Shown: positions 13 to 11,332 of the stretch, piece by piece
How positions within the stretch are numbered: position 1 is the first letter of the stretch
Layout of the letters: every line of letters begins with the position of its first letter
DNA from: Hyphomicrobiales bacterium
GTDB lineage: Bacteria > Pseudomonadota > Alphaproteobacteria > Rhizobiales > MH13
Direction of reading: 5' to 3'
NCBI GenBank assembly: GCA_046290645.1
Contig: JBKAGZ010000004.1
Location: 196,327-260,326 of the forward strand
Length of the DNA: 64,000 bases
Notes under the pieces: generated by a model
What the model was told of the DNA's origin: nothing
Database searches by the model: none
Seen by the model: only the letters and a program-made list of their open reading frames with translations
Translations under genes and position numbers: made by a program

Positions 13-858
13 ATGACACAGGCCGTCGCCCTTCTGGGAGCCGGAGGCAAAATGGGCCTTCGCGTCACCAAGAAACTCGTCGATGCAGGCTATGATGTTC
101 GCGCTGTCGAGACCGCAGATGTCGGCAAGGCTCGCCTTGCCGAGGCCGATATTCAAGCCGTCGACCAAGCCACCGGAATTGCTGGCGCTGATGTTGTGGT
201 GCTTGCTTTGCCGGACAACATTATCGGCAAGGTTTCGCGAGATATTATGCCGTCGCTCAAGTCGGGCGCACTGCTCATCATCCTGGATGCAGCGGCCCCC
301 TATGCTGGCGATGTGCCAACCGAGCGAGATGATGTCTCCATCGTCATCGGTCATCCTTGCCACCCGCCGCTCTTCAACGATGAAACCGAGTGGGATGCCC
401 GGCGGGATTATCATGGCGGCATTGCACGCCAATCCATCGTTTGCGCCCTGATGAAGGGGCCCGAAGAAGCCTACACATTGGGCGAAGACATCTGCAAAGC
501 CATGTGGTCGCCGATCACCAACTGCTACCGTGTCACCGTGGAGCAATTGGCCATTCTGGAACCTGGCCTGTCAGAAATGGTGGCCATGCCCTTTGTGGAC
601 ACGATGGTGGAGGCCGTCGATCTGTGCGCGTCCAAATATGACATTCCGCGCGAAGCAGCGTTTGATTTCATGATTGGGCATTTGAATGTCGAGATCGCCA
701 TGTGGTTCGGCTACTCGCCCAAGGTACCCTCCGATGCAGCCCTAAGGCTGATGCGCTTTGCCAAGGGCGTGGTGGTGCGTGAGGATTGGGAAGAGGCTCT
801 CAATCCGGCCAAAGTGAAAGAAGCCGCCGAACTGATCGTCTACGGTAAAGGCGCTTAA
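13..858 (+). CDS. NAD(P)-binding dehydrogenase; candidate acid-sugar (D-apionate-type) oxidoisomerase
   Basis: 281-aa ORF with N-terminal Rossmann motif LLGAGGKMG. GGAG lies 8 nt upstream of the ATG, and only 6 nt separate it from the next gene. The specific function is inferred from context with the RLP and DUF1537 kinase downstream. Confidence 0.7.
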   Translation: MTQAVALLGAGGKMGLRVTKKLVDAGYDVRAVETADVGKARLAEADIQAVDQATGIAGADVVVLALPDNIIGKVSRDIMPSLKSGALLIILDAAAPYAGDVPTERDDVSIVIGHPCHPPLFNDETEWDARRDYHGGIARQSIVCALMKGPEEAYTLGEDICKAMWSPITNCYRVTVEQLAILEPGLSEMVAMPFVDTMVEAVDLCASKYDIPREAAFDFMIGHLNVEIAMWFGYSPKVPSDAALRLMRFAKGVVVREDWEEALNPAKVKEAAELIVYGKGA

Positions 859-864
859 GTCCTG

Positions 865-2529
865 ATGCGCGAGTCACGCCGCCTATCTGTCGGGGATATT
901 TCCTTTCTCTACGAACCAGGCCTGATCCGACGATTAACGGTGGCTGGCATCGAAGTTGTTCGCATGATCAGCGCACCGGTGCGCGACGCCAACTGGGGCA
1001 CCTTTTCGCCAACGCTGCTGTCCAGTTCGATAGACGAAGCAACAGACAGCGTGCGTATCGAAGAGGTGTTCTCGGTTGCCGATGGCAAGCTGTTGGCAGA
1101 CCTCGTTTTCGACGTCCACGCCGATGGTTTTGTGTCTGCCGAACTGACTTTCACTGGAAAGGAAGATGTGCAGACAAACAGAGCCGGCTTCACACTGCTT
1201 CACCCCATTGCTGGAACGACGGGCACCGCCCTGACCGTCTCGCACAGTGATGGTCGCGTGACCAAAACACGATTCCCCGAGCACATCGCGCCCGGACAAC
1301 CTGCCATCGATATCGTCGGACTTTCCCACACGGTGGGCGATGTGGATGTTAGCATCACTTTCGAAGGTGAGACGTTTGAGACCGAAGATCAGCGCAACTG
1401 GTCGGACGCTTCTTTCAAAACCTATTGCCGCCCGCTTTCGCTGCCGTTCCCTTACACGATTGCAAAAGGCGAAATCGTCACACAGCGCATTGCGATCAAT
1501 CTGAACCGCAAGCCAGAAAGCACCCGTCAGGGCGTGACCGCAACACCGACGCAGAGAATTGAAAAGCCTGTGGGTTTGCCGCAAATCTGCTTGGCGGTCG
1601 AACCAGATTGGCTGACGCATGCGCCGCTGCCACATAACATGGTTCCCGTCTTACGCTTTGCTAGCGCAGACTCTTGGAGCGATGAAAAGCTAGCTCAGAT
1701 CGCGCAGACGCATCGTGATGTCGATATCGAAATCATCGTTCCGGAGGGCAAGGCTGCGCCCAGCGTTTGTGAGGCCGTGAAAGCCTGCCTTGAGGGGTGC
1801 GGGTTAAACGCCAGGCACGTTGTCGCGCTGCCGCAAGCCTATCTCAAAAGCTACCAGCCGACCGGTCTCTGGCCAGAAGGCCTTTCGCCAGAGTCTTGCG
1901 CGCAATCTGCACGCCAAATCTTCACGAACGCGCGCATCGGTGTGGGCATGCTGACCCACTTCACCGAGTTCAACCGCAGACCACCCGATACCTCGCTTGG
2001 CGATTTTGTGACGTTCGCGAACACCGCCATCGTTCACGCTGCTGATGATCTGTCGGTGTGGGAAACGCTTGAAACTTTGCCGCATATCTTTGCCTCAGCC
2101 AAAGCACTTTCAGGCAACTTGCCGATTCGTCTTGGACTGGTCTCCATCGGCATGCGCTCCAACCCATATGGAGACGGTTTGGCACCGAACCCTAGTCACG
2201 CCAAGATCACCACGACAGGTGACGACCCACGGCAGAGAGAGCCGTTTGCCGCTGCCTATGCTGTGGCTGCGTTTGCGCTTGCTGCACAGGCAGGCGTTGA
2301 GGCCATCACGCTTGCCGCACCGACTGGGCGATTGGGCATGATGAACGATGATGGTTCGCTCCTTCCTATCGGCAAGGCATTGAACGCCATGGTCACTCTC
2401 GGCTCACAAGCAAACCTTCTGATGGGTGAAAACAAGGTGACACTCTCAAACGCGACCGGGTCACTATCAGCCGACATCTACGGCCAAGGCGCCGTGCATG
2501 TGTCAGGCTTTGGGGGGCAAGATGACTGA
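865..2529 (+). CDS. uncharacterized 554-aa protein (no recognisable motif), member of the RLP/DUF1537 operon
   Basis: Long ORF in the operon frame with no signal peptide or TM segment. Its stop (2527-2529) overlaps the next start (ATG 2522) by 8 nt. Confidence 0.75.
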   Translation: MRESRRLSVGDISFLYEPGLIRRLTVAGIEVVRMISAPVRDANWGTFSPTLLSSSIDEATDSVRIEEVFSVADGKLLADLVFDVHADGFVSAELTFTGKEDVQTNRAGFTLLHPIAGTTGTALTVSHSDGRVTKTRFPEHIAPGQPAIDIVGLSHTVGDVDVSITFEGETFETEDQRNWSDASFKTYCRPLSLPFPYTIAKGEIVTQRIAINLNRKPESTRQGVTATPTQRIEKPVGLPQICLAVEPDWLTHAPLPHNMVPVLRFASADSWSDEKLAQIAQTHRDVDIEIIVPEGKAAPSVCEAVKACLEGCGLNARHVVALPQAYLKSYQPTGLWPEGLSPESCAQSARQIFTNARIGVGMLTHFTEFNRRPPDTSLGDFVTFANTAIVHAADDLSVWETLETLPHIFASAKALSGNLPIRLGLVSIGMRSNPYGDGLAPNPSHAKITTTGDDPRQREPFAAAYAVAAFALAAQAGVEAITLAAPTGRLGMMNDDGSLLPIGKALNAMVTLGSQANLLMGENKVTLSNATGSLSADIYGQGAVHVSGFGGQDD

Positions 2530-3571
2530 TCGACCTCTACGCGGTGTGCTGATCGGCTGCGGATTTTTCTCCGACAATCATATGAATGCCTGGACCCGTC
2601 AGGATGGCGTAAAGATCACCGCCGTGTGCGATCTTGATGAAGACAAAGCGCGCACAACTGCGCAGCGCTTTGGCGTGAAAACCGTCTACACCAACGCTCA
2701 AGAAATGTTGGCCACAGAAGCACCAGATTTCGTCGATGTGGCCACCACAGTCGGGTCACACCGCGCATTGGTTGAGCTGGCAAGTGGCTATGCCAAAACG
2801 ATCATATGCCAAAAGCCCTTCGCTGAAACCATCACTGATGGCCAGGCTATGATTGCGGCCTGCGAAGCATCTGGCAGCACACTTATCGTGCATGAGAATT
2901 TCCGCTGGCAGCGCGCCTTCACTGTGATGAAAGCAATGATCGAAAATGACGATCTTGGCACGCTCCATTTCGCGCAGTTTTCGTTTCGTCACGGCTACGA
3001 CAACTACGTCAATCAACCCTATTTGGCCGAAATTGAACGTTTCACGATCATGGATGTGGGGCTTCATCTCTTCGATCTTGCCCGGCACTTTCTTGGCGAG
3101 GTGGACACGCTTTCCTGCACCACCCAGCGCCTGAATCCAATTGTGCGTGGTGAGGACGCTTTTACCGCGATGCTCGTCCATACCAGTGGCGCGACCAGCA
3201 TCTGCGACTGCTCCTTCTTCAGCAAGGTCGACCCTGATCCGTTCCCTCAAACATTGGCGCGCATTGAGGGCGTAAAAGGCACATTGCTGCTTGGCCAGGA
3301 TTACCGCCTTACCCTTCACACCGGCAGCGGCGCGCGCGAAATCGACGCCGCGCCCGCCATTCCAAGCTGGGGCGCAGCACCCTGGCAGGGTGTGCAGGAC
3401 AGCGTGATCCGCTTTCAGAACCATGCCGCCGACGTGGCACGCGGACAGGCAGACCCTGCGCCCTCGGGCGCGGACAATCTAAAAACACTTGCGCTGGCCC
3501 TTGCCGCTTACGACGCGGCAGAAACTGGGTCCAGCATCACAATGGCCGATTGGCAGGAGACCACTTCATGA
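2522..3571 (+). CDS. Gfo/Idh/MocA family NAD(P)-dependent oxidoreductase (candidate sugar 1-dehydrogenase)
   Basis: N-terminal RGVLIGCGFFSDNH Rossmann segment and ICQKPF (EKP-like) motif. ATG 2522 (MTDRPL...) is preferred over ORF-track start 2498 because of the overlap with the upstream stop. Confidence 0.85.
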   Translation: MTDRPLRGVLIGCGFFSDNHMNAWTRQDGVKITAVCDLDEDKARTTAQRFGVKTVYTNAQEMLATEAPDFVDVATTVGSHRALVELASGYAKTIICQKPFAETITDGQAMIAACEASGSTLIVHENFRWQRAFTVMKAMIENDDLGTLHFAQFSFRHGYDNYVNQPYLAEIERFTIMDVGLHLFDLARHFLGEVDTLSCTTQRLNPIVRGEDAFTAMLVHTSGATSICDCSFFSKVDPDPFPQTLARIEGVKGTLLLGQDYRLTLHTGSGAREIDAAPAIPSWGAAPWQGVQDSVIRFQNHAADVARGQADPAPSGADNLKTLALALAAYDAAETGSSITMADWQETTS

Positions 3572-4833
3572 CCGCATCGATGTCCGTTACCGACAGCATC
3601 GAGGCTGATTATATCATCGAGACGGCGATAGACCCGCGCAAAGCTGCCGAGACCATGGCAGGCGAACAATCCTCTGGCACGTTTCTGCCCATTCCCGGTG
3701 AAACCGAAGAGCTGAAAGCCCGCTCCGCCGCCCGTGTTGAGCACTTGGAAGTTTTTCAGACCGTCGACACGCCATCCTTGCCCGGTGCAGCGGAGGGAGA
3801 AACCTATCAGCGCGCCCGAGTTACCTTGTCCTGGCCGCTGGGCAATGTTGGCCCGTCACTGCCCAACCTTATGGCCACCGTCAGCGGCAATCTGTTTGAG
3901 CTCAAGCCATTTTCCGGCCTGCGCGTTATGGACATTCGCATGCCGCAGGCTTTCGCAGATGCTTATCCAGGCCCGCAGTTCGGCATTGAGGGCACGCGCC
4001 ACTTAACTGGCGTCTCCAAAGGTCCGTTGATCGGTACAATCATCAAGCCAAGCGTCGGATTTTCCCCGCAAGAAACCGCTGAGCGCGTGGCGATTTTGGC
4101 GCAGGCCGGCATCGATTTCATCAAGGACGATGAGCTGCAAACCGATGGACCCTTTTGTCCGTTTGAAGAGCGCGTAAAAGCGGTCATGGCGGTGATCAAT
4201 GCGCACGCCGAGAAGACCGGCAAGAAAGTGATGTACGCCTTCAACCTTACAGGTGAGATCGATGAGATGCGCGCGCGGCACGATTTCGTGCGTGACCTGG
4301 GCGGCACCTGCGTCATGGCAAGCGTCAATTCGGTGGGGCTTGGCGGCATGATTGCGCTTAGCCGTCATACGCAACTGCCCATCCACGCGCATCGCAATGG
4401 CTGGGGCTACCTGTCTCGCCATCCCATGCTGGGTTGGTCGCATGTTGCCTGGTCGAAATTCTGGCGCCTGGCCGGTGCGGATCATCTGCATGTGAATGGG
4501 CTTCGCAACAAGTTTTGCGAACCAGATGCCAGCGTCATTCAATCAGCGCAGTCTTTGCTGACGCCGCTCTTTGACGACAAGCCGTGCCTGACCATGCCAG
4601 TGTTTTCCTCGGGTCAAAGCGCCATTCAGCCCGCTGAGACTTACCGGCGCATGCAAACCAGCGACCTTATCTACGCGGCAGGCGGCGGCATCGTCGGGCA
4701 CCCAGATGGCATTGAAGCCGGTGTACGCAGTCTGCGTGAGGCATGGGACGCTGCAGAGCAGGGCATCCCAGCGGCAGACTATGCCAAAGAGCATCCGGCC
4801 TTGGCCCGCGCCTTGGATGCCTACGCACAATGA
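3568..4833 (+). CDS. form-IV RuBisCO-like protein (RLP)
   Basis: RuBisCO large-subunit blocks GTIIKPSVGFSP, GIDFIKDDELQ (KDDE) and LPIHAHRNGWG. ATG 3568 makes an ATGA overlap with the upstream stop. No small-subunit or CBB genes are nearby. Confidence 0.9.
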   Translation: MTASMSVTDSIEADYIIETAIDPRKAAETMAGEQSSGTFLPIPGETEELKARSAARVEHLEVFQTVDTPSLPGAAEGETYQRARVTLSWPLGNVGPSLPNLMATVSGNLFELKPFSGLRVMDIRMPQAFADAYPGPQFGIEGTRHLTGVSKGPLIGTIIKPSVGFSPQETAERVAILAQAGIDFIKDDELQTDGPFCPFEERVKAVMAVINAHAEKTGKKVMYAFNLTGEIDEMRARHDFVRDLGGTCVMASVNSVGLGGMIALSRHTQLPIHAHRNGWGYLSRHPMLGWSHVAWSKFWRLAGADHLHVNGLRNKFCEPDASVIQSAQSLLTPLFDDKPCLTMPVFSSGQSAIQPAETYRRMQTSDLIYAAGGGIVGHPDGIEAGVRSLREAWDAAEQGIPAADYAKEHPALARALDAYAQ

Positions 4834-6185
4834 GCCAACCCAACGCGCCGTTGCTTGCCTGGTACGGCGATGATTTCACCGGCTCAGCAACTGTCATGGA
4901 GGAGTTTGCGTTTGCCGGCGTGGAAAGCGTTCTCTTCCTCGATATCCCTGATGCAGAGCAATTGGCGCGTTTTGCAAGCGCACGCACCACTGGCCTGGCG
5001 GGTACCAGCCGCGCCCACAGTCCGGACTGGATGGAACAGAACTTGCCCGCGCCCTTTGCATTTCTGCAACGGCTGAACGCGTCGCTTAACCTCTACAAGA
5101 TTTGCTCCACGCTTGATTCCTCGCCTGAGATTGGTTCCATCGGCAAGGCGCTGGCGATTGCCAGAAAGCAGTTTGGGCAGGGCGTGATCCCCCTCTTCCC
5201 CGCATCACCGAAGATGGGACGCTACCAGTGCTTTGGCACGCTTTTCGCCCGCGCTGATCAAACGGTCTATCGTCTGGACCGACACCCTGTCGTCTCTCAC
5301 CATCCCGTTACGCCGATGGATGAAGCTGATGTGGCCAGGCACATTGCGCGCCAAACCGATGAACCTATCGGATTGATCACACTGACAGACTTGCCGCGGG
5401 CTCAAGAGGTGTTCGCCACGCTGGCAAAGACCGGTGTTGGAATGGTTTCCATTGACGCTGTTGGCTCAGCCGATCTCATCGCCTGCGGGCAGCTTTTCGC
5501 CAGCCTGCCGCATGGCAGCTTGTTAGCAGGCTCCCAAGGCGTGGCGGAAGCGCTGGTGGAGTACTGGCGAACCATTGGCGAGAACGTTGGCGGCAGCGCC
5601 CAATTGCAAACGCCTGGCAGGGCAAACAAAATGGTGGGCCTGTCGGGGTCTTTGTCCCCAACGACACACAGTCAAATTGATCAAGCGCTGGCCGACGGTT
5701 TTGTTGGCGTGCCGCTTGATACCGAACGGTGCCTGGGCACTAAAAAGCAAGCGGCTGTTCGTCAAAGTGTCGAGGCGACACTCGCTATTTTGTCAGAGGG
5801 CAAATCGCCTTTGGTCTACTCCGCACGTGGCCGTGATGACCCGGCGGTAGCCAAACACCAGAACGCAGCAGAGCGGCTTGGCTTGACCAGCGAAGTTGCC
5901 AATCAGAAAATCGGTGAGGCACTGGGTGAGGTGTTAAGCCAGCTGGTCACTACGGGCGCGGTAACACGGGCAGCAATCGCAGGAGGCGACAGCTCTGGCT
6001 ACGCCCTGAAACGCCTTAACATGTTGGCTCTGACGGCATTGATGCCAACGGCTCCCGGCGCTGCGCTTTATCGTGCCCACCCAATGTCGAAGGAGGGTGC
6101 GACGCTCGAAGTGGCTCTAAAGGGCGGGCAGATGGGTTCGCGCACCTACTTTGCCGAAATTCGCGATGGAAATCAGCGCGCCTAG
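4830..6185 (+). CDS. DUF1537 / four-carbon acid-sugar kinase family protein
   Basis: N-terminus MSQPNAPLLAWYGDDFTGS, the hallmark DDFTG motif of this family. ATG 4830 forms an ATGA overlap with the RLP stop. The ORF-track extension from 4743 lies inside the RLP gene. Confidence 0.85.
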   Translation: MSQPNAPLLAWYGDDFTGSATVMEEFAFAGVESVLFLDIPDAEQLARFASARTTGLAGTSRAHSPDWMEQNLPAPFAFLQRLNASLNLYKICSTLDSSPEIGSIGKALAIARKQFGQGVIPLFPASPKMGRYQCFGTLFARADQTVYRLDRHPVVSHHPVTPMDEADVARHIARQTDEPIGLITLTDLPRAQEVFATLAKTGVGMVSIDAVGSADLIACGQLFASLPHGSLLAGSQGVAEALVEYWRTIGENVGGSAQLQTPGRANKMVGLSGSLSPTTHSQIDQALADGFVGVPLDTERCLGTKKQAAVRQSVEATLAILSEGKSPLVYSARGRDDPAVAKHQNAAERLGLTSEVANQKIGEALGEVLSQLVTTGAVTRAAIAGGDSSGYALKRLNMLALTALMPTAPGAALYRAHPMSKEGATLEVALKGGQMGSRTYFAEIRDGNQRA

Positions 6186-6201: not shown

Positions 6202-6915
6202 CTAAAAAAGATCAAGCACGGATCTAAAGCGTTTGACGCTATCGGACACGTGATACGCGACCCGGCCAGGCGGTACAGGAACCTGGACGGCGCTTGCTTC
6301 GATCATGATCCCGAAACGCTTGGGGGCCATGTTGACCATAGATGGCAGCCGAAACCGCCGAGATTTGCCCCAGTCTCGCCAACTCTGTTCATCGGCATTA
6401 GGCAAAAAGCGCAAGGAATTATCCCACATGCGATCACGGATTGTATCGCTCTTGGCAACAAGTGCGTTGTAGATCGCAACCCGTTCCTTGCGATTGGAGG
6501 GCTCAAACGCTGCTGAAAAACAAAGGTCATGAGCCCCGATTTGAAGATCAAATTGCGGGCTGAGCTCCACCTCATCAAGGGTACGCCAAGCGATGTGGAC
6601 AAGGGCTTCTTCCCAAACGCGTCCAGGGTGCAGCCGCCCCAACCCTGGGTCATATTCAAGCGCGGCGTAGGGTTGGTTCAGAGCGGTGGAAAGATAGCGT
6701 GCGATATAGTCAGCCAACTCACGCGCTGAACTGGGAAGCAAGGCAACATCTCGTTCGAACCGACCACCAAACCGATGTCTTGGAGCCGACGCAGGGGCTC
6801 GCTTCAAAGCGCGCGCGATTGTCGAGAAGGTCTCAGACAACCGGTCACCACCGCGCTCATAAGGTGTTTGGAAAAAGGCAGCGTTACCCAGATCGTTTTG
6901 CGTGTGCTGCTCCAT
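6202..6915 (-). CDS. hypothetical cytoplasmic protein, co-transcribed with RND pump
   Basis: 237-aa ORF starting 6 nt after the RND permease stop. No TM segment, signal peptide or motif I recognise. Confidence 0.6.
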   Translation of the reverse strand: MEQHTQNDLGNAAFFQTPYERGGDRLSETFSTIARALKRAPASAPRHRFGGRFERDVALLPSSARELADYIARYLSTALNQPYAALEYDPGLGRLHPGRVWEEALVHIAWRTLDEVELSPQFDLQIGAHDLCFSAAFEPSNRKERVAIYNALVAKSDTIRDRMWDNSLRFLPNADEQSWRDWGKSRRFRLPSMVNMAPKRFGIMIEASAVQVPVPPGRVAYHVSDSVKRFRSVLDLF

Positions 6916-6921
6916 AATCGA

Positions 6922-9900
6922 TCACTCCGCTGCGATAGGTTGGGGGGTAAGGAGGCCACCGCCTTTACCTTCATCATTGTCGGCTTTGGCGGACTTGCGG
7001 GCAGCTTGCCTGGCAAGCTTGCGTTCGTCCTTTGCTTTGCGTTTGGCTGCCTGCCTCACGGCGTTCTCAGCCCGGCGCTCCTTGCGCAGATAGCTGTGGT
7101 AGAGCACCGGCACACCGACCAGGGTTAGAACTGAGGCGAACCCCAAACCGCCCATAATGCTAACTGCCATGGACGCAAAGAACGGATCGCTTAGCAGAGG
7201 GATCATGCCCAGTATGGTCGTGCCAGCTGCAAGCACCACCGGTCGCAAACGGCTGATCGACGCAGCAACAATCGCATCGCTTTGGAACGCATGATCCTTT
7301 TTCTGCTCATCGATTTCTTCAACCAAAACGATGCCGTTCTTGATCAGCATCCCTGACAGAGACAGCAGCCCCAGAAGCGCGGTGAAACTGAAAGGTAGCC
7401 CGGTGAAAAGCAGGCCAAGCGCCACGCCGTTCACGGCCATAGGAACGAGCGTCCAGATCACCGCCGTTTGACGCAGCTTTCCGAAAACCAAAATGGTCAG
7501 CAGAAGCATGGTGCCAAACGCCAGCGGCATTTGCCGACCCAGGCTTTGCTGCGCGGTGCTCGCGCTTTCAAATTCACCGCCCCACTCCATGCGGTAGCCA
7601 GGTGGGAGCTGCATGTCTTCGATAAGCGGGCGTACTTCGCTGAACACGCTTGGTGGCATGACGCCGGGCGGCGTGAAGGATTGCACAGAGATGGTCGGCA
7701 CGCGGTTGCGCCGCTCAATGACCGTGTCTCGGACTTCCACGTTGAAACCATCAACGACTTGTTCAAGCGGAACGAAACCCTCAGTCGCGCGAGAATACAC
7801 CGGTTGGTCGAGAACAAGGCCGTTGGCCGACTGCTCTTCACGTGGTGTGCGCACCAGGATTGGAATCTGACGTTCCCGCTCGCGGTAGACGCCAGCTTGA
7901 ACGCCATCCGTTGCCAGGGCGATGGCTTGGGAAACATCCTGGCGACCAATGCCGAGGGCCTGCGCGCGATCTGTTGCGAAGATGGGCTGGACGGCAAGTT
8001 CACGCTCACGCCAGTCGATGCGCTCGGTGAGCAGCAAATCGGTTTGTGTTTCAAAAATTAGCTGCGCTTCATCTGCCAAGGTGCGCAGCACATTTGGGTC
8101 GGGACCGGAGAACCGTACCTCGACATCAGCGCTAACTGGCGGACCGTAGATAATCTGCTCTGTTCGCACCTCAGCCCAAGGCAGGGTTTCAAAGCTGAAC
8201 GCATCCAAATCCGCACGCAGCTCTGGAATGGCCTCAAAACTCTCTGCGCGGATAATGATTTGACCAAAAGCAGGATCAGGGTTCGGTGGCGTATAGGTGA
8301 GGATGTAGCGTGAGAAAGGTCCGCCAGCGGTGGTCGTGAAAGCTCGCACATCCTCGCGCTGGGCAAGCCAGGCTTCCACTTTGACAAGGTCGCCTGCCGT
8401 CTCGTGGACAGATGTGCCCTGGGCTGCCTGGTAGTTCAGATAAAACAAAGGTGTATTGGCAGGCGGAAAGAACTGCTGGGTGACCATGCCGAATGCCCAC
8501 AAGCAGGCGACCGTGGTGCCAAGCAGCATCGTGATGACCAGCCAGCGGACGTAGAGCGCGCCGCGCACCACCTGGCCATAGAGGCGGAAAAACACCGTGT
8601 CATACGGATCTTTTCCCTCTTTCAGCCCACCAACCTTGAACACATAGTTGGCGAGCAGCGGTGTAACGGTAACAGCGATCAACCAGCTGAGCATGAGCGA
8701 GATGCCAATGACGGCAAACAGCGAGAACAGGAACTCGCCGGAGCTGTCCGGGCTCAAACCAATGCCCGCGAACGCCATGATGCCGATAACCGTGGCGCCA
8801 AGCAGAGGGAACTGCGTTTTACGAGCAACTTCGGAGGCAGCGTCCTTGGCTTTGCGGCCCCGGCGCATTTCCACCTGCATGCCTTCAGCAACAACAATTG
8901 CGTTGTCAACAAGCATGCCCATCGCGATGATCAGGGCGCCAAGGCTGATGCGTTCCACCTTCACATCAAAAATGTTCATGAAGAAGAAGGTGAAGCTCAC
9001 GGTCAGAAGCAGCGAAACGCCAACAACCAGCGCTGAGCGCCAACCCATGAAAACCGCCAGAACCAGGATCACGATGCCCACCGACATCATGAGGGAATTG
9101 AGGAAGTCGCCATTGGCTTCATCAACAACACGGTGCTGCTCATAAATGGGTGCAAGCTCGACACCAACTGGAAGAATGGTCTCAAGCTCGGCAAGCTTCT
9201 CTTCAACGCGCGCGCCCACCGCGACGATGTTTTCAGAGGTCAAACCAGCGATGGCGATCGTGAACGCTTCCTCCCCATTGTGGCGGATGATCTGGCCGGG
9301 CTGATCAACGCGGCTGCGATAGACGCGTGCGAAATCGGTGAGATTCAAAACCTCGCCATCAACACCAAAGCTCAGCGATCCAATCGATGAAACGCTATCG
9401 TCGGCTTCCGGCGCATCAATCTCAACTTGTCGCCCGCCGTTACTGGCTTCCCCGGTCGGGTTAAGGGCTGTTGAGCCACCGATGACAGAGAAGATCGTGG
9501 CCGGATCAACACCAAGATTGACGATGGACCGAGTGGACGGCTCAACGTAGATCGCCTCTTCCGGCAGGCCAAAAACCTCAACATTGGCCACACCGCCAAC
9601 AGTGAGGACTTCCCGGCGCAAGAACGTGGCAATTTCCCATATTTGCGCATCGCTGAAGCCTGTTGTCTTCACCGCATAATAGAGGCCGAAAACATCGCCG
9701 AAACTGTCATTGATGGTGGGGGGAAAGCTACCATCGGGAAGGACGGAGCGAGCATTGTCGATCCTGTCGCGCAAATCATCCCAAATCTGAGGCAGATCGC
9801 CGCCATCATAAATATCCTTCATCTCAACTTCGATAACCGAGACGCCAGGAATGTTGCGTGAGGAGATGATGTTCACCTCGCCCATCTGTTGAATTTCAGC

Positions 9901-10104
9901 CTCAAGAACCTCTGAAACTTCTATGGCAACCTCACTAGCCGAGGCGCCGGGATAGGGCGTGATGACGAGCGCTGATTTGAGCGTGAAAGTGGGGTCTTCC
10001 AACTTGCCGACCCCGGCATAACCAGCCAAGCCACCAAACAAACAGAAGAGTATCAAAAGCCAGGTGTAGAGTGGCTTCTCAATCGACAAACGAGCGATCT
10101 GCAT
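6922..10104 (-). CDS. RND efflux transporter permease (AcrB/HAE family)
   Basis: 1060 aa with the typical N-terminus (SIEKPLYTWLLILF) and 12-TM/large-loop organisation. It has a Lys/Ala-rich C-terminal tail. The start lies 4 nt after the adaptor gene stop. Confidence 0.95.
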   Translation of the reverse strand: MQIARLSIEKPLYTWLLILFCLFGGLAGYAGVGKLEDPTFTLKSALVITPYPGASASEVAIEVSEVLEAEIQQMGEVNIISSRNIPGVSVIEVEMKDIYDGGDLPQIWDDLRDRIDNARSVLPDGSFPPTINDSFGDVFGLYYAVKTTGFSDAQIWEIATFLRREVLTVGGVANVEVFGLPEEAIYVEPSTRSIVNLGVDPATIFSVIGGSTALNPTGEASNGGRQVEIDAPEADDSVSSIGSLSFGVDGEVLNLTDFARVYRSRVDQPGQIIRHNGEEAFTIAIAGLTSENIVAVGARVEEKLAELETILPVGVELAPIYEQHRVVDEANGDFLNSLMMSVGIVILVLAVFMGWRSALVVGVSLLLTVSFTFFFMNIFDVKVERISLGALIIAMGMLVDNAIVVAEGMQVEMRRGRKAKDAASEVARKTQFPLLGATVIGIMAFAGIGLSPDSSGEFLFSLFAVIGISLMLSWLIAVTVTPLLANYVFKVGGLKEGKDPYDTVFFRLYGQVVRGALYVRWLVITMLLGTTVACLWAFGMVTQQFFPPANTPLFYLNYQAAQGTSVHETAGDLVKVEAWLAQREDVRAFTTTAGGPFSRYILTYTPPNPDPAFGQIIIRAESFEAIPELRADLDAFSFETLPWAEVRTEQIIYGPPVSADVEVRFSGPDPNVLRTLADEAQLIFETQTDLLLTERIDWRERELAVQPIFATDRAQALGIGRQDVSQAIALATDGVQAGVYRERERQIPILVRTPREEQSANGLVLDQPVYSRATEGFVPLEQVVDGFNVEVRDTVIERRNRVPTISVQSFTPPGVMPPSVFSEVRPLIEDMQLPPGYRMEWGGEFESASTAQQSLGRQMPLAFGTMLLLTILVFGKLRQTAVIWTLVPMAVNGVALGLLFTGLPFSFTALLGLLSLSGMLIKNGIVLVEEIDEQKKDHAFQSDAIVAASISRLRPVVLAAGTTILGMIPLLSDPFFASMAVSIMGGLGFASVLTLVGVPVLYHSYLRKERRAENAVRQAAKRKAKDERKLARQAARKSAKADNDEGKGGGLLTPQPIAAE

Positions 10105-10108
10105 CGGT

Positions 10109-11332
10109 CTATTCCTCGACTTTCAGGCCGGTGTACCGGCGCACAGATTGCCCATCGCGTAGCAGGTGTGCGCCCACATTCACAACTTCAACATCAGGCG
10201 ACAGGCCGGTGACCTCAAAACTGGTGCCGTCAATGCTGGTGACGTCCACTTCAACAGCGCGCACTACACCTTCCTCGGCGCCTGCCGGCTCAAAAACCAT
10301 GACATAGGGATCACGGTTTTCATCCGCGGCGATGGCTGTGGTTGGGAGGATCAGCGAGGCGGTTGGGTGCGGAAGAGCCGCCGTGACGGTTAATGAGCTC
10401 CCGGGCAGGAGAGCCGTAGATGACACATCGGGCAGCGCCAAGCTGAACTGGTAGCTTTGGCCAACCCGCTCGGTTTGCGCTTGGAACTCAATGATCGAAA
10501 GCTCGATGGGAGCGTCCATGCCCAAAGGATGCGCGGTGAACGTCACCTGATCGACCCTTGGAAACCGTTGGATTAAACGCTCGGGAACGTCAATTTCCAC
10601 CCGCATCTGCGAGACGTCATGAATGCGGACCACTGGGGTGCCAGGCGCTATAATGACATGATTGGCAATCAGACGCTCAGCGATAAGACCGCGATACGGG
10701 GCCGTGATCGTCGCGTCTGCAAGAGCATCGCGCGCCTCACGCAGAGCAACGTCTGCAAGGTCACGGGCCGTTTCCGCATCTTCGGCCTGTGTGCGAGGCC
10801 CAACGTTCTGGCGCGCCAATTCCTGTGCGCGCTCTAGACTGCGCTCAGCCTGTATGAGCTGGAGTTCGGCGCGCTCCACCGCCCGTTCAAACGGTGCCAG
10901 GTCAAGCTGCGCGAGAAGCTGCCCTGGCTCCACAATTGTTCCTTCCTCAATCGGGAAAGATGTCATGGTTCCGTTGAGCGGAAAGGCCAAGTCGGCCGTC
11001 TCACGCGCGACCACGCGGCCGAAGAAATTGCGTTGCAGGATGGTTTGCCGATCCGCTGGCATCGCCAACTCCACTGCCCGCAGAACTGGCGCAGCAGTTT
11101 CATCGACAACCTCTTCGGCTGGTTCTTCGCCATCAACGGGTTCTTCAGCGCCTATGCCAATCAAAGCCAGCGCTTGCTCGATAAAGGACGGCGAAGCACC
11201 CGCCGGTTCCTGTTGTTTAGAGGCCGCAACAACGGGCGTGGCTTCTTGAGCATGCGTCTGCGGCGCCAAAACCAAAGCGCACATCAAGCCCGCACTGATG
11301 AGCAATGTCTTGGATGGGGGGATGACTTGCAT
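10109..11332 (-). CDS. RND efflux periplasmic adaptor subunit (HlyD/MFP family)
   Basis: 407 aa with a signal peptide (LMCALVLAPQTHAQE) and coiled-coil/barrel-sandwich type sequence. It sits immediately upstream of the RND permease. Confidence 0.9.
   Translation of the reverse strand: MQVIPPSKTLLISAGLMCALVLAPQTHAQEATPVVAASKQQEPAGASPSFIEQALALIGIGAEEPVDGEEPAEEVVDETAAPVLRAVELAMPADRQTILQRNFFGRVVARETADLAFPLNGTMTSFPIEEGTIVEPGQLLAQLDLAPFERAVERAELQLIQAERSLERAQELARQNVGPRTQAEDAETARDLADVALREARDALADATITAPYRGLIAERLIANHVIIAPGTPVVRIHDVSQMRVEIDVPERLIQRFPRVDQVTFTAHPLGMDAPIELSIIEFQAQTERVGQSYQFSLALPDVSSTALLPGSSLTVTAALPHPTASLILPTTAIAADENRDPYVMVFEPAGAEEGVVRAVEVDVTSIDGTSFEVTGLSPDVEVVNVGAHLLRDGQSVRRYTGLKVEE

Follow-up and report, generated by a model that had tools for sequence, protein, structure and literature searches.

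What reaction does a RuBisCO-like protein (RLP) encoded directly before a DUF1537 kinase catalyse in a marine Ahrensia (Hyphomicrobiales)? We addressed this question in a stretch of 64,000 nucleotides (G000:C4:196327-260326, referred to as the window), which opens with five intact same-strand genes at 13-6185. On balance, and with moderate confidence, we favour the reading that these genes belong to an operon that imports and degrades D-apiose, a sugar of plant cell walls, ending in an OiaT-type RLP reaction. The five genes are as follows (aa, amino acids).

13-858, plus strand: gene 1, ApnO-like oxidoisomerase (281 aa)
865-2529, plus strand: gene 2, ApnL-like lactonase without a Pfam family (554 aa)
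2522-3571, plus strand: gene 3, Gfo/Idh/MocA NAD(P) dehydrogenase, ApsD-like (349 aa)
3568-4833, plus strand: gene 4, form-IV RLP of a non-OiaX clade (421 aa)
4830-6185, plus strand: gene 5, member of the DUF1537 four-carbon acid-sugar kinase family, OiaK-like (451 aa)

Consistent with an initial annotation of this DNA, genes 1 and 2 are separated by 6 nt, genes 2 and 3 overlap by 8 nt, the last two junctions are ATGA overlaps, and the proposed families were all recovered by Pfam: RuBisCO_large and RuBisCO_large_N in gene 4, directly before a kinase with SBD_N and NBD_C (gene 5), GFO_IDH_MocA in gene 3, and PGDH_C with an NAD-binding N-terminus in gene 1, the small NAD-binding enzyme of that annotation. 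G+C across the five-gene region is even (55-60%). The annotation was also right that the window holds no transporter or regulator of the operon, but wrong to start the operon at the window edge, because about 4.8 kb more of it lies upstream. In total, the operon comprises nine translationally coupled genes, of which the five in the window form the 3', catabolic part, and is accompanied by a divergent regulator.

How would such an operon work? The data show the order and synteny of the genes, their families, the catalytic residues that they keep and the purifying selection on them; the substrate, each reaction, the RLP product and the regulation are inferred. We favour D-apiose because the gene content matches its oxidative pathway one to one by Pfam and NCBIfam. 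A CUT2-family ATP-binding cassette (ABC) system would import a furanose-type pentose, most likely D-apiose, which the Gfo/Idh/MocA enzyme is predicted to oxidise to a lactone, D-apionolactone. The ApnL-like protein would open this lactone to D-apionate, and the ApnO-like enzyme would then form 3-oxo-isoapionate by an NAD+-dependent oxidation coupled to hydroxymethyl migration. As a predicted 3-oxo-isoapionate 4-kinase, the DUF1537 protein would make 3-oxo-isoapionate 4-phosphate. The RLP would shift the carboxyl group of this compound intramolecularly and hydrolyse the product to 3-phosphoglycerate and glycolate, the OiaT-type reaction. The former would enter central metabolism directly and the latter via a GlcD/GlcE-like oxidase.

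The initial annotation had likened the genes to the oxidative D-apiose/D-apionate architecture, and the best NCBIfam matches agree with it: ApnL for gene 2, OiaX for gene 4 and OiaK for gene 5, with an ApnO homologue as gene 1. It had named the apionate RLPs OiaC and OiaX; OiaX stands, and OiaC should read OiaT (PMC13753588). In that nomenclature, OiaX is an RLP decarboxylase, OiaT is the RLP transcarboxylase/hydrolase of route 2 (ApnO-OiaK-OiaT), and OiaC is a non-RLP decarboxylase of route 3, which also uses LerK, EryH and EryI (PMC13753588). The Ahrensia operon most likely represents not a new pathway but the logic of the known oxidative apiose/apionate pathway, diverged and fused. Its front end is like that of OiaX-type clusters and its back end most likely that of route 2, OiaT-like, with one NanR-like regulator over both.

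Which type of RLP is gene 4? The protein matches PF00016 with 227 bits. A bona fide RuBisCO of forms I-III was ruled out by six active-site changes and by the form III model (242 against 497 bits). MtnW was ruled out as well (190 against 409 and 158 against 514 bits), and with it the methionine-salvage clade that the initial annotation had named as an alternative. On the OiaX model, gene 4 scores 475 bits, 225 below the equivalog cutoff of 700. For calibration, R. johnstonii OiaX reaches 780 bits and the C. necator N-1 RLP 446 bits; in sequence terms, a score under the cutoff does separate two RLP types. Gene 4 is 45-48% identical to proteins named OiaX by the Prokaryotic Genome Annotation Pipeline (PGAP; 46% to that of R. 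johnstonii) and 60% identical to the C. necator N-1 RLP. We collected 94 distinct RLPs at least 59% identical to gene 4 from genome contigs and added annotated plasmid examples. In a maximum-likelihood tree, which a FastTree overview accompanied, OiaX splits off on a branch with 100% support, and gene 4 and the C. necator N-1/Paraburkholderia group share a clade supported at 98%. The score, the identities and the separate branch together rule out OiaX as the identity of gene 4.

The nearest tree neighbours of gene 4 are RLPs of Rhodobacterales and Rhizobiales encoded in ApnO-kinase-RLP triads or in full clusters like that of the window. Beside the C. necator N-1 RLP lie an ApnO identical to PDB 5T57, assayed on D-apionate, and a kinase above the OiaK cutoff. 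Among the 94 clade RLPs, a DUF1537 kinase accompanies 84 (directly adjacent in 80) and an ApnO homologue 59. Where each flank spans at least 5 kb (59 loci), 56 loci have the kinase, 43 ApnO, 24 an ApnL homologue and 15 the Gfo/Idh/MocA gene. The window shows the same OiaT-type linkage, with a kinase that overlaps the RLP gene (ATGA) and an ApnO in the same operon. The full gene set, in shuffled order, stands beside RLPs 65-69% identical to gene 4 on a Shinella plasmid, in Pseudorhizobium and Rubellimicrobium, and on a plasmid of Rhodobacteraceae SC52. An R. phaseoli plasmid (NZ_CP013541.1) holds two RLP matches, the better one 65.9% identical. Clade members 68-70% identical to gene 4 carry the Joint Genome Institute label "3-oxoisoapionate-4-phosphate transcarboxylase/hydrolase", an annotation and not an assay. 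Likewise by annotation and not by assay, the Watanabe group assigns ApnO-OiaK-RLP genes that adjoin a C4/C5/C6 sugar-acid cluster to route 2, with OiaT (PMC13753588). Their earlier paper lists Roseovarius sp. CAU 1744 as such a genome, and the RLP of this strain is 71% identical to gene 4. An ESM Atlas look-up of the RLP returned generic RuBisCO names only.

For the active site, we aligned the RLP with a form I RuBisCO encoded in a genome from its own order and found 15 of 21 RuBisCO residues kept (E60, T65, N123, K175, K201, D203, E204, H294, R295, H327, K334, S379, G381, G403 and G404) and six changed (W66F, T173I, K177S, H298W, L335F and G380S). Both OiaX proteins differ further, at E60D, N123G, H327Q, L335Y and S379G/C, a residue signature that sets OiaX apart from the rest of the clade. 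In RuBisCO, E60, N123 and K334 lie around the incoming CO2 and the resulting carboxylate, and H327 is at the hydration/cleavage site. The nine carboxyl-handling and hydration residues (E60, N123, K175, K201, D203, E204, H294, H327 and K334) are all present in gene 4; this set is our own criterion, derived from RuBisCO chemistry, and not a published definition of OiaT. The kept residues would fit an enzyme that re-adds a carboxyl group and hydrolyses the product, and their loss in OiaX would fit a simple decarboxylase. Most likely, then, the RLP is an OiaT-like transcarboxylase/hydrolase of 3-oxo-isoapionate-4-phosphate.

Alternatively, the operon could degrade D-apiose with an OiaX-like RLP that decarboxylates its substrate to L-erythrulose-1-phosphate and CO2. 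OiaX is the best and only apionate-specific NCBIfam match of gene 4, the Gfo/Idh/MocA and ApnL front end is the one found in the PGAP-annotated OiaX clusters that we examined, and a paper of February 2026 labelled the Roseovarius triad "OiaX". Against it stand the score and identities given above, the fully supported branch between OiaX and the gene 4 clade, and the absence from gene 4 of the OiaX substitutions at E60, N123, H327, L335 and S379. What would the host do with the decarboxylation product? EryH/LerI is a TIM (triosephosphate isomerase)-family isomerase and EryI/DerI is an RpiB-family isomerase. In the 97.7% complete genome we found one TIM-family gene and no RpiB/LacAB gene, and thus neither a second TIM-family nor an RpiB-family gene for L-erythrulose-1-phosphate. 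In the described routes, this product of the decarboxylase needs both EryH/LerI and EryI/DerI, so that the genome lacks the types that it requires. The products of the transcarboxylase/hydrolase require nothing special downstream; a GlcD-like gene (458 bits) adjoins a GlcE-like gene elsewhere in the genome. Thus, the kept RuBisCO carboxylation and hydration residues, together with the lacking erythrulose-phosphate isomerases, favour OiaT-type chemistry, and we consider decarboxylation improbable.

Does gene 1 support D-apionate as the intermediate? It is the sole PF16896 gene in the genome (196 bits) and matches PDB 3c24 with 412 bits and PDB 5t57 with 255 bits. The latter is identical to the ApnO of C. 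necator N-1 plasmid pBB1 and so matches the enzyme F8GV06, whose D-apionate kinetics have been tabulated (Table 1 in PMC13753588); published ApnO values of kcat/Km for D-apionate range from ~77 to 520 per min per mM (PMC13753588). Mutagenesis has defined ten ApnO residues that abolish or nearly abolish activity when mutated or that bind metal or coenzyme, and gene 1 keeps them all (D68, D92, H113, H116, E183, S187, E188, F218, H222 and S239); we predict that it converts D-apionate to 3-oxo-isoapionate with NAD+. ApnO homologues form three subfamilies: type A, the characterised type of C. necator, Paraburkholderia and OiaX clusters; type B, that of alphaproteobacterial triads; and type C, which comprises gene 1, its counterparts in Rubellimicrobium and Sulfitobacter D35, and PDB 3C24.

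Several observations weigh against an OiaT-type D-apiose operon. (i) The products of genes 2, 4 and 5 all score below the curated equivalog cutoffs: gene 2 reaches 381 of 750 bits with its best NCBIfam match, ApnL (NF049900; full length, E 8.5e-114), gene 5 reaches 423 of 700 bits with OiaK (NF042436), and the NCBIfam scan returned no family for gene 1. (ii) Gene 1 belongs to a third ApnO subfamily, 43-48% identical to both A and B, and four of its five pocket positions are changed: F133/V225/L226/F238/C242 read H/V/E/P/A, with only V225 kept. (iii) An OiaT family is absent among the NCBIfam hits of the RLP, so that probably no OiaT model exists, and the OiaT assignment is indirect, drawn from clade, linkage and labels and not from the sequence of the characterised X. 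autotrophicus OiaT. (iv) Some sublineages within the RLP clade have a short-chain dehydrogenase/reductase (SDR) in place of ApnO: on plasmids of R. etli and A. tumefaciens, the RLP is found with an SDR and a KDG-type permease and without ApnO, and sublineages of Methylobacterium and Bradyrhizobium likewise have no ApnO in the vicinity of the RLP. A strict link between the clade and apionate is therefore lacking, and its upstream chemistry is not uniform. (v) The binding protein of the operon is only a distant match (62 bits) to PDB 5IBQ, which we take to be a D-apiose-bound entry. (vi) The genome encodes a second ApnL homologue (649 aa) that scores 640 bits on the ApnL model and is more canonical than gene 2.

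Calibration bears on the first of these points. On the OiaK model, the kinase of R. johnstonii, from a genuine OiaX cluster, scores 477 bits, and that of C. necator N-1 scores 769, above the cutoff. The OiaK cutoff thus captures only C. necator-like kinases, and a sub-cutoff kinase score says little. On the ApnL model, the R. johnstonii lactonase scores 1061 bits and the Shinella lactonase, from the same cluster type as the window, 313 bits. The low score of gene 2 is accordingly best read, by sequence comparison, as the mark of a diverged lactonase subfamily, and gene 2 as an ApnL homologue that is not a certified equivalog. PDB matches of the binding proteins (62 and 83 bits to 5IBQ) are weak, and we discarded them as uninformative about the ligand.

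Could the same chemical logic serve another substrate? The sugar could be one with a C2(R),C3(R) aldonate or another branched sugar, such as D-ribose, L-lyxose or an unknown branched pentose or hexose, with the ApnO-like enzyme, the kinase and the RLP acting on the corresponding 3-oxo-acid phosphate; D-apiose, if used, would then pass through the second lactonase locus. The hydrophobic ApnO pocket, which reads F/I(V)/L/F/C in type A, F/I/E/F/A in type B and H/V/E/P/A in type C as found in gene 1, holds the migrating C3(S) hydroxymethyl of D-apionate in the published model, and characterised ApnO also accepts D-erythronate, D-ribonate, L-lyxonate and L-rhamnonate, being promiscuous for C2(R),C3(R) aldonates (PMC13753588). 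The ApnL-like protein, at half its cutoff, is 35-42% identical to all others, and the binding protein represents a type of its own that only clusters sharing this front end conserve, at 70-82% identity. The second ApnL homologue has its own ABC system and an SDR-type dehydrogenase. On the other side, the same binding-protein type (71% identical) is paired with type B ApnO in Shinella and Pseudorhizobium, which suggests that both subfamilies handle one substrate. Moreover, the pocket residues are treated apart from the completely conserved ones, and their alanine mutants retain activity (PMC13753588). Finally, for each component, the closest relative yet described comes from the apiose pathway. 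We regard a different substrate as unlikely.

A more specific version of this idea, which we rate as rather unlikely, is that the Ahrensia-type operon is a sister pathway for a different sugar, branched or C2(R),C3(R), with D-apiose degraded through the lactonase/dehydrogenase locus on contig C1. Its marks would be the polar, remodelled pocket of ApnO type C, the strongly diverged ApnL-like lactonase, the operon's own binding-protein type and the OiaT-like RLP. If true, such a sister pathway would bring a new substrate within reach of RuBisCO-like transcarboxylation and ApnO-type oxidoisomerisation.

Type C ApnO proteins, 74-79% identical to gene 1, also occur beside another RLP lineage, 53-56% identical to the RLP of the window (L179-L188, in Tianweitania, Shinella pollutisoli, Nitratireductor, Mesorhizobium, Aliihoeflea and Mongoliimonas), where the binding proteins are 40-43% identical. 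ApnO subfamily and RLP lineage have thus been reassorted. Plasmid-borne RLP-kinase pairs with RLPs at 48-59% identity (L158, L162, L160, L164 and L161) have no ApnO nearby; their neighbours are SDRs, VOC proteins, BKACE enzymes, TRAP or KDG permeases and LysR regulators. Two of these pairs, those of R. etli and A. tumefaciens, group within the clade of the window RLP and the other three just outside it; all of them apparently represent acid-sugar pathways without an assignment. In the Ahrensia genome itself, a second RLP-like gene (376 aa; G000:C3, L213:8196-15118, minus strand; best hit an MtnW-type model, 184 against 409 bits) directly follows a split transketolase, with N and C subunits, and a CUT2 ABC importer. 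We know of no RLP pathway that matches an RLP beside a transketolase.

What kind of protein is the ApnL-like lactonase, predicted from its sequence to convert D-apionolactone to D-apionate? Pfam holds no model for the ApnL family, and a sequence search for a relative of gene 2 with a solved structure found none. We aligned 32 homologues, which share 31 invariant columns, and used this alignment for an AlphaFold (AF2) model (predicted local distance difference test score 90, predicted template-modelling score 0.89). The modelled fold consists of three parts: a beta-sandwich at the N-terminus, an alpha/beta barrel in the centre and a beta domain at the C-terminus. The best Foldseek matches are glycosidases of families GH36, GH97 and GH101 with the same three-part architecture; their E-values are ~1e-12, yet their global TM-scores are low (~0.28).

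At the second lactonase locus (G000:C1:667561-674441; L212:4531-12441), the second ApnL-like gene is accompanied by a GntR/FCD regulator, a Peripla_BP_4 binding protein, an ABC ATPase and a permease, and by an SDR of the epimerase/dehydratase family. We found no ApnO, kinase or RLP near this locus on contig C1. The Discussion of Watanabe et al. 2026 describes route 2/3 genes clustered with a D-apionolactonase and a putative dehydrogenase, a context reported there as not found by the Gerlt laboratory and uncharacterised (PMC13753588). Likened by this text description only, the window operon shares with that context a D-apionate back end joined to a lactonase and a dehydrogenase. The C1 locus, with its ApnL-like gene and epimerase-family SDR, may fit the description better than the window operon does and may represent the lactonase and putative new D-apiose dehydrogenase context of that paper (PMC13753588).

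Gene 3 matches PF01408 and PF22725. Its identity is 44-50% to Gfo/Idh/MocA genes from OiaX-type clusters and 52-56% to its counterparts in clusters with the same binding protein. Gene 5 matches PF07005 and PF17042 and is 41% identical to the C. necator N-1 kinase. Grouping of the kinase with threonate/erythronate kinases, another alternative in the initial annotation, was not borne out: gene 5 scores 165 against 350 bits on OtnK and 76 against 450 bits on DtnK, and these scores, together with a separate true OtnK gene, rule out a tetronate kinase. That OtnK gene is part of a complete, separate L-threonate cluster (G000:C2, L214:6876-10469, minus strand), three of whose four genes score above cutoff (LtnD 411/350, OtnK 556/350 and OtnC 285/250, with OtnI at 291/325). 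The tetronate kinase of this genome is thus a separate gene. The L-threonate/D-erythronate pathway (LtnD, OtnI, OtnK and OtnC) shares with the window operon a DUF1537 kinase acting on a 3-oxo acid sugar and, unlike it, has no RLP.

How does the sugar enter, and what controls the operon? We extended the locus 16 kb upstream (L001; window coordinate = L001 coordinate minus 16000). There, where the initial annotation had advised looking, an importer with its binding protein and a regulator are present:

L001:10234-10947, minus strand: GntR/FCD regulator, NanR-like, divergent from the operon
L001:11174-12181, plus strand: Peripla_BP_4 binding protein with a signal peptide
L001:12287-13468, plus strand: ABC permease 1
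L001:13465-14964, plus strand: ABC ATPase, coupled, upstream of permease 2
L001:14961-16016, plus strand: ABC permease 2, whose 3' end occupies 1-16 of the window and whose TGA overlaps the ATG of gene 1 (ATGA)

The importer is of the CUT2 ABC type, with a binding protein, an ATPase and two BPD_transp_2 permeases of the ribose type; its binding protein is 70-82% identical to those of other clusters with the same front end. Between the regulator and binding-protein genes, a 227-bp regulatory gap holds a 25-bp element, AACTGGTATAATGACTATAACAGTA, at L001:11019-11043 (window -4981 to -4957). Its ends are ACTG...CAGT, and it contains a GGTATA hexamer as well as an extended -10 box, TGGTATAAT. The element was spotted by eye and its conservation was then checked: it is kept in three near relatives and persists amid diverged flanks in a relative whose regulator is 76% identical. 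A consensus promoter scan returned no promoter, and a repeat search of the regulatory region no inverted repeat. The pattern of conservation suggests a promoter plus operator, and the divergent NanR-like GntR repressor probably controls the operon at this element, overlapping the extended -10 box.

How does the operon compare with the described systems? The oxidative D-apionate route 2 goes back to Carter et al. 2018 (Nat Chem Biol 14:696; summaries in PMC13753588 and PMC6302742). The window operon shares with it the trio of an ApnO-like enzyme, a DUF1537 kinase and a non-OiaX RLP, with kinase and RLP adjacent, and the lack of any need for downstream tetrulose-phosphate isomerases. Route 2 starts at D-apionate, whereas the window operon adds a dehydrogenase, a lactonase and a sugar ABC importer, and its ApnO is of another subfamily (43-48% identity) with an altered pocket. 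The OiaX route (ApsD, ApnL, ApnO, OiaK and OiaX), as on R. johnstonii 3841 pRL12 (L082), uses the same five enzyme families, and a NanR-like regulator and an ABC importer of the ribose type are likewise clustered with them. Identities between the two are 46% for the RLP, 35% for ApnL, 44% for the Gfo/Idh/MocA enzyme, 41% for the kinase and 47% for ApnO. The pRL12 transporter has one permease and a DUF2291 protein in contrast to the two permeases of the window operon, and the RLP of the window lacks the OiaX signature residues.

Is the operon maintained? Ahrensia marina ac1 and three metagenome-assembled genomes show synteny over the entire operon. Identity to A. marina ac1 is 99% for ApnO and the binding protein, 95% for the RLP, and 80% for ApnL and the kinase. 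The other genome of the genus that we searched, complete and in a single contig, contains no RLP, and the operon is therefore accessory. Against the relatives L174-L177, the ratio of nonsynonymous to synonymous substitution rates (dN/dS) over the nine operon genes is 0.01-0.19, with seven genes at 0.01-0.09 and ApnL and the kinase at 0.15-0.19. Across the Ahrensia relatives, protein-level evolution of the lactonase-like and kinase genes is 2-10 times faster than that of the remaining seven. Purifying selection maintains the full set of nine, with looser constraint on ApnL and the kinase. Pseudogenisation or recombination behind the low identity of ApnL and the kinase was ruled out, because their dS is like that of their neighbours and their dN/dS stays at 0.15-0.19.

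Downstream, on the minus strand and convergent (window 6202-11332), lie a 237-aa open reading frame without a family match, a resistance-nodulation-division (RND) efflux permease (1060 aa) and a periplasmic adaptor (407 aa). The open reading frame ends 16 nt past gene 5, and a consensus scan found no terminator-like site downstream of gene 5. Upstream of the operon lie a SorC/DeoR-type regulator with a PfkB sugar kinase (L001:8203-10138) and, farther away, a fused E1 alpha/beta dehydrogenase or transketolase-like gene (819 aa; L001:4717-7176).

What does the operon mean for this family? RLPs are the main window on RuBisCO-fold chemistry beyond CO2 fixation, and only a handful have assigned reactions. 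The Ahrensia operon is a well-defined, cultivable RLP test case, because A. marina ac1 carries the same operon. It joins a D-apiose front end and a presumed transcarboxylase/hydrolase back end under one regulator. With the NCBIfam cutoffs for OiaK, OiaX and ApnL, most natural clusters of this type go unnamed. ApnO has a third subfamily, in which the substrate pocket is changed and which includes the solved but unassigned structure PDB 3C24, and the ApnL family appears, from the model, to have a glycosidase-like three-domain architecture. Interest now centres on the predicted RLP reaction, the pocket of ApnO subfamily C and the presence of two lactonase loci in one genome. Seagrass and duckweed pectins are rich in apiose, and such plant pectins would make D-apiose a plausible carbon source for marine Alphaproteobacteria.

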